NCBI GenBank assembly: GCA_964465205.1
Contig: CAYXJO010000001.1
Location: forward strand, 5,099 to 69,098
From: an uncultured Gammaproteobacteria bacterium
Lineage (GTDB): Bacteria; Patescibacteriota; Patescibacteriia; Magasanikbacterales; GWA2-37-8
Reading direction: 5' to 3'
Length of the DNA stretch: 64,000 nt
Shown here: piece after piece, positions 47,728-61,977 of the stretch
Numbering within the stretch: the first letter of the stretch is position 1
Layout: each line of letters begins with the position of its first letter
The notes under the pieces: generated by a model
Database searches by the model: none
Told to the model about the DNA's origin: nothing
What the model saw: only the letters and a program-made list of their open reading frames with translations
Made by a program: the position numbers and the translations under genes

Positions 47728-49695
47728 TTAGTTGGCGAGGCGAATCTCCTCTTCGAGCGCTTTGGCCTCGTCGACCCAGATGGTGCCGGCGTTGTCTGAC
47801 GGCATGCGCCAGTCGCCGCGTTGTCCTAGGGCCACCGAGCCGACTTTTACACCATCCGGCCCGGCGTCGCGCTTGAACTGGTTCTTGAAGAATCGGTCAA
47901 AGAAGCGCGTTAGCCATTTGGCGATGGTGGTCGGTTTGTACTTATCGCGGAAGGCGAGTTGCGCCAGGAGAAAGATCTTTTCCGGAGAGGCGCCCCACCG
48001 CAGGAAGTGATAGAGGGTAAAATCATGGAGCTCGTACGGCCCCACGAGATCCTCGGTGAGTTGTTCGCCGCGAGTGAGCTCGGGGCTGATGGGTGTGTCA
48101 AGGATGTCATACAGAACGGCTTTGGTTGCCTCGCCGAATTCGCCGGTGTCGGCCAGATGCCGCACCAGGAATTTGACGAGCGTTTTGGGCACGCCCATGT
48201 TCACGCCGTACATGCCGGTCTGATCGCCGGCATACGTGCACCACCCCAAAGCGATCTCCGAGAGATCGCCGGTGTTGATCATGAAGCCATGCTTCATGAT
48301 TTTCACCGTGCGCATGCGAGCCTGGACATTCTCGCACTTCAGACAGTTTCCACACGGTTCGTGGCCAGACTGCCGGAGCTCGATCTCGGCTTGTTCGGTG
48401 ATAGGTTCTTCGAGCAACTTCACACCCAGTGCTTCGCACAACTTGTGTGCGTTGCCGCGCGTCCTTTCGCCGGTGCCGAAGCCCGGCATGGTGACGGCGA
48501 TGATACCATCGAGGGGCCATCCGAGCAGACGGAATGCACGTACGGTGATGAGTAGAGCGAGTGTGCTATCGAGCCCGCCCGACACACCGATTGATACCTG
48601 GCGATTAATTCCGTCGCCGAGACCAGACAGTCGCCGCGCGAGAGCCGTCGATTGAATGGCGACGATCTCGCGGCAGCGTTTGTCGAGCGTAGTCGGGTCG
48701 CTGGGCACGAATGGCGCCGGGTTGACGCTCCGGAAGATATTGTCCTCCATGAGCGATACTTTTGGTGAAGAATGCGTTTCGCATTCTACCACTCGATATG
48801 CCCGTCGGTTGTTCGTGGCGTTCTGTGCCCACGAGTTCGAACGACGTCGGTCGAAAGCGATATTCGAAAGGTCCACGTCGGCGACAACCAGCTTGTTCTC
48901 CGTGCTGAAGCGCTCGCTGTCGGCGATGACGTATCCGTTTTCGCAGACAAACACATCGCCACCATAGAGCACGTCTTTCGACGACTCGCCCCAGCCGGCG
49001 CTGCAATACATATAGACGCCCATCTGGTCGGCGGAGCGGGCGGTGATCATAGAGCGGCGATAATCTGCTTTGCCAACCAGCTCATCGCTTGCCGAAAGGT
49101 TGGCGATGATGGTGGCGCCACCCAGCGCATGGTGCGCGCTCGGTGGAATCGGCATCCAGCCGTCTTCGCAGATTTCGATGCCTATTCGCGCATTGGGGAT
49201 GTTTTCGACGTCGATCAGGATGTCGGTGCCGATCGGCACCATCTGCCCCAAAAGTCTGATTTCTTTGGCCGGCAACTGATCCGCCGAAGAGAACCAACGT
49301 CGCTCATAGAATTCCGCGTAGTTGGGCAAATGGCTTTTTGGCACCACGGCAAGAATGCTTCCTTTGTTTAATGCCACCGCCACGTTGAACAACATACCGT
49401 TAACCGCGAGCGGCATGCCCACGATAACGACCACCGGAATATTGTGAGTGGCCATTCTCACCATTTCAAGGGCGCTAAGCGCCTTTTTGAGTAATGTGTC
49501 GTGCAGGAACAGATCCTCGTGGGTATACCCGACGAGTGAAAGCTCCGGCGTGACCAGTAGTTGCACGTTTTGTTCGTGCGCTTGGCGCATGAGTTTGGTT
49601 ACTTCGTCCGCGTTGGCGGACGGATTGCCCATATGCACCACTGGTACACCACAGGCAACGCGAAATAATCCTGAGATCCTTTTTTTAGTATCCAT
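47728..49695 (-). CDS. nadE: Glutamine-dependent NAD+ synthetase (N-terminal CN-hydrolase domain + C-terminal NAD synthase domain)
   Basis: Nitrilase-type catalytic Cys context IGIEICEDGW. PP-loop SIGVSGGLDSTL. 655 aa, typical of the long NadE form. Confidence 0.85.
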   Translation of the reverse strand: MDTKKRISGLFRVACGVPVVHMGNPSANADEVTKLMRQAHEQNVQLLVTPELSLVGYTHEDLFLHDTLLKKALSALEMVRMATHNIPVVVIVGMPLAVNGMLFNVAVALNKGSILAVVPKSHLPNYAEFYERRWFSSADQLPAKEIRLLGQMVPIGTDILIDVENIPNARIGIEICEDGWMPIPPSAHHALGGATIIANLSASDELVGKADYRRSMITARSADQMGVYMYCSAGWGESSKDVLYGGDVFVCENGYVIADSERFSTENKLVVADVDLSNIAFDRRRSNSWAQNATNNRRAYRVVECETHSSPKVSLMEDNIFRSVNPAPFVPSDPTTLDKRCREIVAIQSTALARRLSGLGDGINRQVSIGVSGGLDSTLALLITVRAFRLLGWPLDGIIAVTMPGFGTGERTRGNAHKLCEALGVKLLEEPITEQAEIELRQSGHEPCGNCLKCENVQARMRTVKIMKHGFMINTGDLSEIALGWCTYAGDQTGMYGVNMGVPKTLVKFLVRHLADTGEFGEATKAVLYDILDTPISPELTRGEQLTEDLVGPYELHDFTLYHFLRWGASPEKIFLLAQLAFRDKYKPTTIAKWLTRFFDRFFKNQFKRDAGPDGVKVGSVALGQRGDWRMPSDNAGTIWVDEAKALEEEIRLAN

Positions 49696-49742
49696 GCCAA
49701 TCTCCTTCAGTCAGTCAAAGCGCTTGCGCGCGTAGGTGGTTA

Positions 49743-50654
49743 TTATTCGTTTCCATTTCCGCCGAGCAGGATCGCGCCCGGGTACTGCCACGCGTACGTG
49801 GTCAGTCCGGACGAATAGAATATCAACGTCCGAATTTCTTCAGCCGCCGTCGGCACAGTGAGGCAGTTCGTCACGCAAACGTTCTGCCCGCCGATGTCGA
49901 GTACGGTGGCGCCATGCGCCAAATACATAACCGGCGTACCGGCCGCCATCAGCGCGTTGGTGATCGTGTCGCTTTGTGCCTTGGTGAGCCCGTGTTCCAT
50001 CACGTACCGCGACGCGGAGTCGCTGGCGGTTTCGCCATCCGGTTTGTTGATCGGACGAACCGTCAGTTGCTCCACGCGATGTTTGCGGCACCAGTTCACG
50101 ACGTTCATGACTTTCTCCGGAGTATCGATGTACCCTTGGAGCATCATGACGCACAGCCGGACAGTGAAGCCCAGTTTGTGCAGGTAGGCGATCGTGGTAG
50201 CCAGGTCGGGGTAATCCTTGCGGTAGACCTGGCTATTGTAAGCGTTTTCGTAGTGGACCGTGGACAATGCGATGGTGTTGAGTCCCATGGTGTGCCAGCG
50301 CTTGAGCATGGCTTCGGAAAGTCGGCCTTTGCGCTGTTTCTTGTCGCCGCTAGCCAGCCGGCCGATTTCGAGCCCGTTGGTTTGGAGCTCGACGAACGGA
50401 AAACTGTAGGGCTTGAGCAGGCGTAGGTATTGGGTGATTTCACTCGGATACAACAGCGGTTCGCCTTTGCCCGTGATCAACACCGTGGTGGTGCCGCCGA
50501 TTTGGGCGAGCCGGGCCGCCTTGTGAAAGTTGGTTTCGTTGATTTTGCATGGTTTGCATACCTCGCCAAATCCCGTCATCTGCGAAATGCAGAACGGGCA
50601 GCGAGCGTTGCAAGCCTTGCCGCCGGCGACGATCGAGAATGTGGTGACCTTCAT
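49743..50654 (-). CDS. Radical SAM domain protein (function unknown)
   Basis: CNARCPFC (CxxxCxxC) near the N-terminus, and the GKGEPLL SAM-binding motif. Start MKVTTF is preceded by RBS AAAGGAAG. Confidence 0.7.
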   Translation of the reverse strand: MKVTTFSIVAGGKACNARCPFCISQMTGFGEVCKPCKINETNFHKAARLAQIGGTTTVLITGKGEPLLYPSEITQYLRLLKPYSFPFVELQTNGLEIGRLASGDKKQRKGRLSEAMLKRWHTMGLNTIALSTVHYENAYNSQVYRKDYPDLATTIAYLHKLGFTVRLCVMMLQGYIDTPEKVMNVVNWCRKHRVEQLTVRPINKPDGETASDSASRYVMEHGLTKAQSDTITNALMAAGTPVMYLAHGATVLDIGGQNVCVTNCLTVPTAAEEIRTLIFYSSGLTTYAWQYPGAILLGGNGNE

Positions 50655-61133: not shown

Positions 61134-61134
61134 T

Positions 61135-61977
61135 TCACACCTCCTTGGTGCGGCGTATTACCACGATGGTGGTGTCGTCGCTCAGCAGTCCATGTTCGAT
61201 GTCGAGTTTTTGGGTGTGCCAGTTGGCGGTTTTCATTTCGCGATTAGCCAGAGTTAGGCGCCGGCGCAAATTGTCCGGATTGGCGAAATAACGGTCGTCG
61301 TACCAGAATTGGTCGAGCGGTCCGAGGATTTCGTTACTGCCGGGCAGGTTGCGGTTGGCGTTGGTAGAGAATTCGAACGTGCCGTCAGAGCCCAGAATAA
61401 GGGATTGCACTTGGCTGGTCGGGAGTAGGCGATTGATGAGGGGCGAAAAGTGAGGTTGACTTTCGTCGCGCACCAATTCGTAGGCAAGGTAGGGTGGATA
61501 GTTGCCGGGGAATGGTCCTAGCTGGGCAACTTCTCCATTGATCCCGATTAGTCCGTCTCCCAGAGAAAACAGTACGGTGAATTCCGGAGTGATGACTGTG
61601 CCAATGACCGTGAACAGGAAGTAGTCGTTTATGGTCTGCGAGAAACTGCCACCCATGTTTTTCGCCAAAAGGCAAATTTGAGCAAGCAGTGTTTGCGCGG
61701 CGCGACTGAGCGCGCGATTGATCCGACTGCCGTCGGTATCCGGTGTGGCCGGCTGATTGCCAAGTTCACGAATAATTTCGGCGGTGAGCATGCGCGCGCC
61801 GATCTGCGCACCCACTTCGCTATACGGCCCACTGCCACAGCCGTCACAGATGGTGGCGACAATAGCGTGGGGCAGCGCGATAACGTGGTGGGCATCCTGG
61901 TTGTTTTTGTTGATGCGGCGGTGGTCGCGGCCGACGATGGTGCCCGCAGCGATTTCCCAGTCTGGTCTTATGTCCAT
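61135..61977 (-). CDS. PP2C-family protein Ser/Thr phosphatase
   Basis: QDAHHV...ATICDGCGSG resembles PP2C motifs 1-2. Stop/start is adjacent to the kinase gene (1-nt gap). Confidence 0.7.
   Translation of the reverse strand: MDIRPDWEIAAGTIVGRDHRRINKNNQDAHHVIALPHAIVATICDGCGSGPYSEVGAQIGARMLTAEIIRELGNQPATPDTDGSRINRALSRAAQTLLAQICLLAKNMGGSFSQTINDYFLFTVIGTVITPEFTVLFSLGDGLIGINGEVAQLGPFPGNYPPYLAYELVRDESQPHFSPLINRLLPTSQVQSLILGSDGTFEFSTNANRNLPGSNEILGPLDQFWYDDRYFANPDNLRRRLTLANREMKTANWHTQKLDIEHGLLSDDTTIVVIRRTKEV

Follow-up and report, generated by a model that had tools for sequence, protein, structure and literature searches.

A probable NrtR-controlled NAD(P) recycling island headed by a mobile kinase, phosphatase, vWA and nicotinamidase-like cassette in a candidate-phyla bacterium

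How does a bacterium of the candidate-phyla radiation come to encode what looks like an entire route from nicotinamide to NADP, and how is that route controlled? The question arises from a 64,000-nucleotide stretch (referred to as the window in the rest of the text) of contig CAYXJO010000001.1 (assembly GCA_964465205.1, positions 5,099 to 69,098), in which positions 47728-61977 form an island of elevated GC content (0.560 versus 0.451 in the remaining DNA of the window). The window is a chromosomal bacterial fragment carrying gyrA, ftsH, thrS, tsaD, the S1 protein gene, a gene for a pilB-type ATPase and five tRNAs. Since its GyrA shares 77-80% identity with proteins from Candidatus Magasanikbacteria and Patescibacteria metagenome-assembled genomes (MAGs), its closest named relatives, the host belongs to the candidate-phyla radiation. 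The island is filled by 11 co-directional open reading frames (ORFs) on the minus strand. An earlier note on this DNA had rightly described a co-directional, GC-rich block but counted twelve genes while naming eleven, and its 'AT-rich genome' overstates the contrast with a background of about 45% GC. We favor, with somewhat more than even confidence, the interpretation that this block, located on the chromosome, was acquired horizontally and recycles NAD(P) under the control of NrtR, with phosphorylation gating the step at which nicotinamide enters.

Profile hidden Markov model (HMM) searches confirmed most of the enzyme identities proposed in the note, namely PP2C (see below), PncA, NMNAT-NADK, NAPRT, a radical SAM protein and NadE. 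The PncA-type nicotinamidase (54653..55480, minus strand, as are all genes of the island) matches PF00857 (2.1e-16) and PRK11609 (1.2e-23, under the curated cut-off). It is followed by a nicotinate mononucleotide (NaMN)/nicotinamide mononucleotide (NMN) adenylyltransferase-NAD kinase fusion (NMNAT-NADK; 53251..54642; TIGR00482 6.7e-27, under the cut-off; PRK04761 7e-49). A long-form nicotinate phosphoribosyltransferase (NAPRT; 50822..52441) scored 478 bits against TIGR01513, for which the cut-off is 297 (2.5e-143), and contains the Pfam domains NAPRTase_N and NAPRTase_C, while the glutamine-dependent NadE (47728..49695) combines a nitrilase-type CN_hydrolase domain with an NAD_synthase domain. 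Because the searches confirm PncA, NMNAT-NADK, NAPRT and NadE, the predicted enzyme set leading from nicotinamide to nicotinate, NaMN, nicotinate adenine dinucleotide (NaAD), NAD and finally NADP is complete, in agreement with the route first proposed. No nicotinamide phosphoribosyltransferase (NamPRT) was found in the window, where NAPRT is the sole large phosphoribosyltransferase (PRTase), and exact-protein look-ups for X (see below), NAPRT and NadE returned no match. A gene at 37040-37849 considered as a possible NadE of the host itself was rejected, as it codes for a stand-alone CN-hydrolase.

The four genes at the head of the island code for proteins of another kind. The first gene of the leading operon (61135..61977, minus strand) codes for a PP2C-type phosphatase (PF13672, 1e-19) whose metal-binding residues (D28, D45, D198, D267 and D268) are retained in 97-100% of 46 homologues. 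The second (59274..61133) codes for a Ser/Thr kinase composed of a kinase domain (residues 1-290), a zinc ribbon (C298..C313) and a seven-blade-like beta-propeller (324-618). The family of this kinase numbers 1425 members or more, and its sequences remain about 50% identical between cyanobacteria, an acidobacterium and several lineages of the candidate phyla. The third gene (57445..59217, with a probable ATG start at 59217 preceded by a GAAAGGA site, within an ORF extending to 59295) codes for a fusion between an N-terminal domain, X, and a C-terminal nicotinamidase-like hydrolase, IsoL. The fourth (56523..57341, probable ATG start at 57341) codes for a von Willebrand factor A (vWA) protein of TerY-like type with an intact metal-ion-dependent adhesion site (MIDAS), in which D88, S92, T157 and D193 are 100% conserved in 51 homologues and position 90 is Thr or Ser (Ser in 84%). 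A viral homologue of this protein (L024:10907-11641) matches PF00092 at 4e-7. In PP2C, C47 lies in a DGC motif that replaces the usual DG(H/M)GG; it is conserved in all 46 homologues and may be redox- or metal-related.

IsoL makes up the last 350 residues of the fusion protein, about 100 more than PncA. Since BLASTP yielded no significant alignment between IsoL and the PncA of the window, homology was established by means of a family profile and a bridging sequence (L011). A profile built from five IsoL homologues matches solved nicotinamidases (including 2h0r and 3pl1), with E-values of 1.7e-6 for yeast Pnc1 and 5.7e-5 for Mycobacterium tuberculosis PncA, and a viral IsoL homologue reaches 23.5 bits against a family cut-off of 27. 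The putative catalytic triad D327/K490/C542 and the metal site D375/H377/H456 are 97-98% conserved in 82 homologues, and the family comprises 2147 cluster representatives among 1.84 billion. From these similarities we infer that IsoL is a divergent metal-dependent nicotinamidase, nicotinamide being its presumed substrate. The X-nicotinamidase and vWA assignments of the earlier note are thus upheld by the family profile, the conserved triad and the conserved MIDAS, though not by a direct Pfam match.

PP2C, the zinc ribbon- and propeller-bearing kinase, IsoL and vWA form a conserved mobile cassette. Viral contigs scanned with the IsoL profile yielded 75 loci, whose ORFs were then searched iteratively. 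All four genes are present at 44 of the 75 loci, always co-directional, and 43 of these 44 share one cyclic order, including 30 with IsoL-vWA-PP2C-kinase, 8 with the PP2C-kinase-IsoL-vWA arrangement seen in the window and 2 with vWA-PP2C-kinase-IsoL. For 19 of the 44 viral cassettes, a gene for NAPRT, NadE or NMNAT or an NrtR-like gene is found no more than 10 kb away; the other neighbors of the viral cassettes are phage-like (LAGLIDADG, PNKP-type ligase, DnaJ, Phage_rep_O, DUF5131, RNA ligase and HNH). Two genomes with the cassette, LR756500.1 (462 kb) and LR756511.1 (595 kb), are deposited in GenBank as 'uncultured phage'.

The cassette is also found in bacteria. A Paceibacterota MAG (L010) contains genes for PnuC and a NadR-like protein next to a block coding for NrtR, PP2C, the kinase, IsoL, vWA, a second IsoL (IsoL2), NMNAT, NAPRT, a Nudix protein, a nucleoside 2-deoxyribosyltransferase-like/Nudix fusion, NADK, phosphoribosyl pyrophosphate (PRPP) synthetase and NadE. 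In the cyanobacterium Cyanosarcina radialis (L092), nrtR precedes PP2C-kinase-IsoL-vWA, and IsoL is 68% identical to that of the window. A Saccharibacteria MAG (L009) carries the four-gene cassette on its chromosome beside the genes for IMPDH, ComEC and PGK, with no adjoining nrtR seen, and a 1.7-Mb metagenomic contig (L094) and the related L095 and L096 carry it as well. The deoxyribosyltransferase-like/Nudix fusion and PRPP synthetase of L010 (16523-19659) are both missing from the island of the window. In the low-GC lineage of the 1.7-Mb contig (L096 2248-4933, L095 15332-16384), the cassette is located near agmatine-deiminase-like (PAD_porph) and radical SAM genes, the latter unrelated in sequence to the radical SAM gene of the window.

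Upstream of the leading operon lies nrtR (62261..62947, minus strand, GC 0.46), which codes for a protein with a winged helix (NrtR_WHD, PF21906, 6.7e-22) and a Nudix sensor domain (PF00293, 2.1e-11); since its Nudix box reads RTLKTK, this domain is predicted to be non-catalytic. Two NrtR-type operators, TGGTGTATTATATACACTA (62102..62120) and TGGTGTACATATTACACTA (62224..62242), lie between nrtR and the PP2C-led operon, each with a single mismatch to TAGTGTA-N5-TACACTA. Paired boxes of this type occupy the same position, the gap between nrtR and the PP2C gene, in the window, in the Paceibacterota MAG and in the cyanobacterium. NrtR operators have been described as palindromes of about 21 bp with a GT-N7-AC core (PMC2330246), and the boxes of the window match this core. 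A weaker box (62951..62969) directly upstream of nrtR overlaps a TTGACA-17-TACTAT promoter-like site and suggests that nrtR is autoregulated. NrtR and its operators are thus predicted to control the leading operon. For this reason the description of 47728-61977 as self-contained did not hold: the unit is wider, with nrtR and its operators on the right and a related flank at 41.7-47.6 kb on the left, rich in NAD- and nucleotide-related genes (see below).

These features can be assembled into a working model with two layers. By homology, the X-pncA-nmnat/nadK, nudix-like-NAPRT and rSAM-nadE operons encode the enzymes of the Preiss-Handler route and of NADP formation, and the mobile head cassette, made of nrtR, the two operators and the genes for PP2C, the kinase with its zinc ribbon and propeller, X-IsoL and vWA, would provide control. 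ADP-ribose frees characterized NrtR repressors from DNA (PMC2330246). Upon intracellular cleavage of NAD, ADP-ribose would accumulate and NrtR would leave its operators; the cassette would then be expressed and IsoL would deamidate nicotinamide, the other cleavage product, to nicotinate, which NAPRT, NMNAT, NadE and NADK would convert to NAD(P). The kinase, PP2C and vWA would act as a TerY-P-type phosphorylation switch, either gating the activity or localization of IsoL or tying this enzyme to a signal that the propeller senses. X could supply or sense an NAD-derived ligand and hand nicotinamide over to the fused or neighboring nicotinamidase.

Several observations weigh against this model. 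The IsoL domain of the window has no Pfam match even at E = 10 and no NCBIfam match, its vWA protein has neither, and X matches nothing in Pfam, NCBIfam, PADLOC, PHROGs or the PDB sequences, nor did a Foldseek search of X against the PDB return anything. A canonical PncA is also encoded, and IsoL may therefore be dispensable for nicotinamide deamidation and might use another substrate. The cassettes of C. radialis and of the Saccharibacteria MAG lack adjoining NAD biosynthesis genes, and some regulators of the NrtR family govern pathways other than NAD metabolism (PMC2330246). An operator scan of the window revealed no NrtR box at the units starting with X-pncA, nudix-like-NAPRT and rSAM-nadE, and NrtR may therefore not regulate the island in its entirety. 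Finally, the elevated GC content at third codon positions (GC3) of the island could have causes other than foreign origin.

A broader version of the model, which we put forward tentatively, holds that IsoL-vWA-PP2C-kinase, often with NrtR, is an unrecognized mobile system of NAD conflict or homeostasis in huge phages, candidate-phyla bacteria and cyanobacteria, in which the switch gates the irreversible deamidation of nicotinamide upon NAD cleavage, and that X belongs to a new family of ADP-ribosyltransferase (ART)-fold, NAD-cleaving or NAD-binding domains fused to nicotinamidases. X is a rare new domain family. Besides the copy fused to IsoL, the window codes for a stand-alone X-domain protein (55507..56274, probable ATG start at 56199, minus strand), which shares 41% identity with that copy and whose gene lies 27 nt ahead of pncA. 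Six other protein clusters contain the X-IsoL fusion as well. Four Arg residues and one Glu are invariant in X. Stand-alone X genes in candidate-phyla-like loci (L001 10001-10657, L002 10001-11258 and L005 4033-6033) adjoin genes for small Nudix hydrolases and HAD phosphatases, with no NAD synthesis genes. X thus sits with nicotinamidases, Nudix and HAD proteins, suggesting that its partners process both products of NAD cleavage. We take X, which has a weak ART-like fold signal, to be an NAD- or ADP-ribose-binding or NAD-cleaving module, with low confidence in its chemistry. X resembles ART-fold enzymes (ART toxins, Tpt1/KptA, RES/MbcT, DarT and NADase toxins) in its ordered invariant Arg ... 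Thr-Trp ... Glu pattern and in having genomic partners that handle nicotinamide and ADP-ribose, but it matches none of them by Foldseek or HMM, contains a long helical insert and lacks a toxin/antitoxin or secretion context.

X also gives weak matches to NADase and ART toxins, and these leave some room, though little, for a TerY-P-type anti-phage defense system acting on NAD, with or without X, in which the kinase switch would trigger NAD cleavage by X and irreversible nicotinamide deamidation by IsoL to starve the phage, the salvage genes then refilling the pool. TerY-P-like triads do act as stand-alone defense systems and accompany restriction systems (PMC11090510), predicted conflict systems headed by ADP-ribose-sensing Nudix regulators have been described (PMC9503650), and the cassette has moved between phyla, its copies sharing 50-68% identity. 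However, at E ≤ 0.01 the TerY-P-type models of PADLOC recognized none of the cassette proteins, the sole PADLOC match being a weak one to MkoA for the kinase, and the C-terminal domain of this kinase is a propeller behind a zinc ribbon rather than the OB fold of the defense version. Huge-phage genomes themselves carry the cassette abundantly, usually next to NAD-synthesizing genes and not next to effectors. Moreover, no relative of X was found in viral contigs or at the other cassette loci examined, which argues that NAD cleavage is not a core activity of the cassette.

No better supported, in our estimate, is the view that the island is a captured huge-phage NAD-reconstitution module for counter-defense, comparable to the NARP pathways but working through the Preiss-Handler route, and now domesticated or lying in a prophage remnant. 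The resemblance to phage NAD modules pointed out in the note is real: huge-phage contigs commonly contain homologous cassettes, often beside NAPRT, NadE or NMNAT genes, the phage-like contigs with Phage_rep_O, DUF5131, RNA ligase and HNH genes have IsoL copies that share 46-60% identity with that of the window, jumbo phages carry pncB-nadD-nadE clusters (PMC11662467), and both the GC content and the translation signals of the island are foreign. Relatives in bacterial chromosomes are nonetheless equally close or closer (IsoL 68% identical in the cyanobacterium and 63% in Saccharibacteria). The phage relatives have a GC content of 0.43-0.46, below the 0.56 of the island, and are therefore not its direct donors. 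No phage structural or integrase gene was found among the annotated subset of the ORFs of the window, and no att-like direct repeats flank the island.

Doubtful to a greater degree is the possibility that IsoL is not a nicotinamidase at all and that the cassette is a generic TerY-P unit with an isochorismatase-superfamily hydrolase of other specificity, brought near NAD genes by chance or shared mobility. The failure of IsoL to reach any Pfam or NCBIfam threshold, its extra residues relative to PncA and the cassettes standing alone in L092 and L009 would fit such a scenario. On the other hand, its best matches among solved structures are specifically nicotinamidases, the Asp/His/His metal site typical of these enzymes is conserved, and the cassette repeatedly adjoins NAPRT, NadE, NMNAT or NrtR genes in independent lineages. 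In the NAD cluster of L010, two IsoL copies are present and no PncA-type gene was found among the annotated genes.

The abrupt shift in GC content and Shine-Dalgarno (SD) usage relative to the remainder of the window might suggest that sequence from a co-binned organism of higher GC content was wrongly joined to the contig, but such a chimera is essentially refuted, as both boundaries are bridged by single-run Logan assemblies. Contig L012 crosses the right GC boundary (window 61730-63648, 100% identity; HU-nrtR-PP2C) and L013 the left one, from the 3' end of a HAD gene through the PRTase gene to the 3' end of nadE, while L006 corresponds to the interior of the island (window 51528-56827, 100% identity). 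A single NCBI contig of 144,454 bp records both island and housekeeping proteins, and the nrtR-PP2C adjacency that spans the right boundary is kept in L010 and L092. In addition, the palindrome TTGGCTAAAATTAGCCAA occurs at 22238, 35006, 41599, 56412 and 63437, at intergenic or gene-end positions, with 6 strand matches in the window versus 0.08 expected; four of these sites are host intergenic sites and 56412 is inside the island. Together, the junction-spanning contigs, the single NCBI contig, the conserved adjacency and the shared palindrome indicate that the contrast in composition and SD usage reflects horizontal acquisition, not chimerism. The palindrome itself could be the operator of a global regulator or a promoter-associated element.

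Horizontal acquisition, also proposed in the earlier note, is likely because of the GC3 of the island genes (0.59-0.82 versus 0.33-0.55 for housekeeping genes) and the island-specific SD sites. AAAGGA/GGAG sites precede 9 of 11 island genes and 5 of 8 left-flank genes but only 3 of 36 background genes; the AAAGGA ribosome-binding sites taken in the note for host-type signals are therefore nothing of the kind. Their positions shift the probable starts of four genes: X-IsoL, vWA and the radical SAM gene (ATG 50654), and the PRTase gene of the left flank (ATG 46950). Housekeeping genes of the host nearly all lack an SD motif (e.g. upstream of gyrA at 19483, ftsH at 22931 and S1 at 20922), and foreign genes with a different initiation signal (GGAG/AAGGA) are evidently tolerated.

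Each ingredient of the preferred interpretation, the NrtR-controlled recycling island, has been described elsewhere, and its pathway content is ordinary in kind. As summarized in PMC11090510, the TerY-P triad (Anantharaman et al. 2012) comprises a TerY-like vWA protein, a PP2C and a Ser/Thr kinase with a C-terminal zinc ribbon. The window contains all three, co-directional and in one operon, with the MIDAS intact and the zinc ribbon following the kinase domain, and its cassette is likewise mobile across distant lineages. Compared with the triad so summarized, the cassette differs by a fixed nicotinamidase-like fourth member between kinase and vWA, an additional beta-propeller on the kinase, its own NrtR-type regulator and operators, and an association with NAD salvage instead of tellurite-resistance or restriction genes. 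It differs from the defense version in PADLOC, a kinase-OB fusion, in matching none of the TerY-P models there.

Other parts of the island have published counterparts too. In NrtR regulons (Rodionov et al. 2008, PMC2330246), a Nudix and winged-helix regulator also adjoins NAD genes and binds palindromic GT-N7-AC operators, and those of cyanobacteria include pncB, nadD and nadE. In contrast, the operon of the window starts with a phosphatase, a kinase, a nicotinamidase-like protein and a vWA protein, while that paper lists no phosphatase and uses 'kinase' for NadR and Prs only. NAD-jumbo phages carry clustered pncB-nadD-nadE (Li et al. 2024, PMC11662467), and homologues of the cassette occur with NAPRT or NadE genes on huge-phage contigs; the window set, however, lies on a bacterial chromosome and adds NADK, PncA, X and a radical SAM protein, and no kinase, phosphatase, vWA or nicotinamidase-like partner is mentioned in that paper. 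Of the phage pathways NARP1 (Adps and Namat), NARP2 (NamPRT and NMNAT) and NARP3 (PnuC and a NadR-like protein) (PMC13464706), all are, like the island, compact gene sets that restore NAD from breakdown products or precursors, and the left flank of the window has a NadR-like gene of its own. The island differs by its route via nicotinate (PncA/IsoL, NAPRT and NadE) and by its regulatory triad and transcription factor. Unlike NARP2 and NARP3, it has no NamPRT or PnuC that we could find (no search was aimed at Adps or Namat); no PnuC gene next to the NadR-like gene is seen among the annotated flank ORFs, whereas L010 has both PnuC and NadR.

The suggestion of the note that the combination was undescribed therefore holds in part. 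NrtR, PP2C, kinase, IsoL and vWA recur together in Paceibacterota and a cyanobacterium, the last four of these recur in the Saccharibacteria MAG and in huge phages, with no nrtR seen beside them, and Preiss-Handler clusters of jumbo phages have been published, without the signaling part. What is new is the nicotinamidase-containing, NrtR-controlled TerY-P unit and its wide, previously unremarked distribution. Among the annotated families of PHROGs, none corresponds to the cassette, and a full-text literature search combining NrtR, vWA, PP2C, kinase and nicotinamidase returned nothing relevant. Nicotinamidase, PncA, PP2C and TerY are absent from the jumbo-phage NAD paper (PMC11662467) and from two surveys by the Aravind group on viral NAD systems and on jumbo phages, save for pncA in the Discussion of PMC11662467; in the two surveys, vWA appears in other contexts only. 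We found no description of the cassette as a unit, although the 2012 TerY-P paper (Anantharaman) may already mention an isochorismatase partner of certain triads.

The loss of NAD and its restoration are now central to the conflict between phages and bacteria, and the published NARP1-3 are unregulated two-gene sets. The island points instead to a nicotinate-route pathway whose entry enzyme would be held inside a kinase/phosphatase/vWA switch behind an NrtR-type repressor, in a cassette that is present on dozens of contigs from huge phages and in three or more phyla of bacteria. If this is true, the TerY-P triad, the function of which has been unclear since 2012, gains its first defined enzymatic client and a testable biochemical target. 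For candidate-phyla bacteria, it would mean that a host-dependent cell can gain cofactor autonomy through gene transfer.

The note was right that strong internal terminators are present. Terminators made of a hairpin and a T-run, along with one or more promoter-like sites within the island, divide it into four probable units, PP2C-kinase-X/IsoL-vWA, X-pncA-nmnat/nadK, nudix-like-NAPRT and rSAM-nadE. The break between the first two (56361..56474, minus strand) comprises a terminator with a 12-bp stem (56446-56474), the island copy of palindrome TTGGCTAAAATTAGCCAA (56412-56429) and a TTGACA-17-TATAGT promoter (56361-56389).

Two island genes remain. The first (52459..53118, minus strand) codes for a Nudix-fold protein with a weak resemblance to ADP-ribose pyrophosphatases (TIGR00052, 1.7e-7, under the cut-off), the enzymes to which the note had likened it. 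When aligned to NudF-type ADP-ribose pyrophosphatase, its Nudix box reads GX5L...QEAGQE instead of GX5EX7REUXEEXGU, with E to L, R to Q and second E to Q replacements. With so degenerate a box, the protein is probably a binder or weakly active, and not an active ADP-ribose pyrophosphatase. The second gene (49743..50696, minus strand, with its probable start at 50654 as given above) codes for a radical SAM protein with a CxxxCxxC motif (PF04055, 1.6e-9) and weak MoaA-, viperin- or Tes-like similarity. No homologue was found in the 88 loci compared or in the GenBank phage collection, and this protein is outside the set conserved elsewhere.

The left flank (41739..47588) is intermediate in GC3 and SD usage. 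It contains genes for a NadR-like NMNAT with a P-loop kinase (41739-42791, plus strand), an HD-motif protein (42712-43410, plus), a HAD phosphatase (43541-44266, plus), a GNAT protein (44392-44916, minus), a TrpR-like regulator (45143-45460, plus; PF01371, 1e-23), a nucleoside phosphorylase (45538-46341, plus), a second HAD phosphatase (46334-46924, plus) and a PRTase-like protein with a weak match to PRTase_2 (46950-47588, plus). The TrpR-family regulator thus leads a small plus-strand nucleoside phosphorylase-HAD-PRTase operon (45143-47588) that resembles a module for the processing of nucleosides or nicotinamide riboside. Just outside the left edge of this region of elevated composition are a tRNA-Glu gene (40660-40732) and a gene for a TrmB-like regulator (40797-41555); at the right end, the tRNA-Glu gene was found to have no att-like repeat.

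Elsewhere in the window, an SPFH/Band-7 gene (9803-11674, minus strand) with a GC content of 0.63 and a GC3 of 0.91, values much more extreme than those of the NAD island, stands alone in a background of 44% GC and may be another recent transfer. At 4208-5651 (minus strand), in the host background, a Nudix hydrolase gene (PF00293, 1.7e-19) adjoins a gene for a UMPH-1-type pyrimidine 5'-nucleotidase (2.5e-66), a member of a mostly eukaryotic family that is unusual for a candidate-phyla bacterium.

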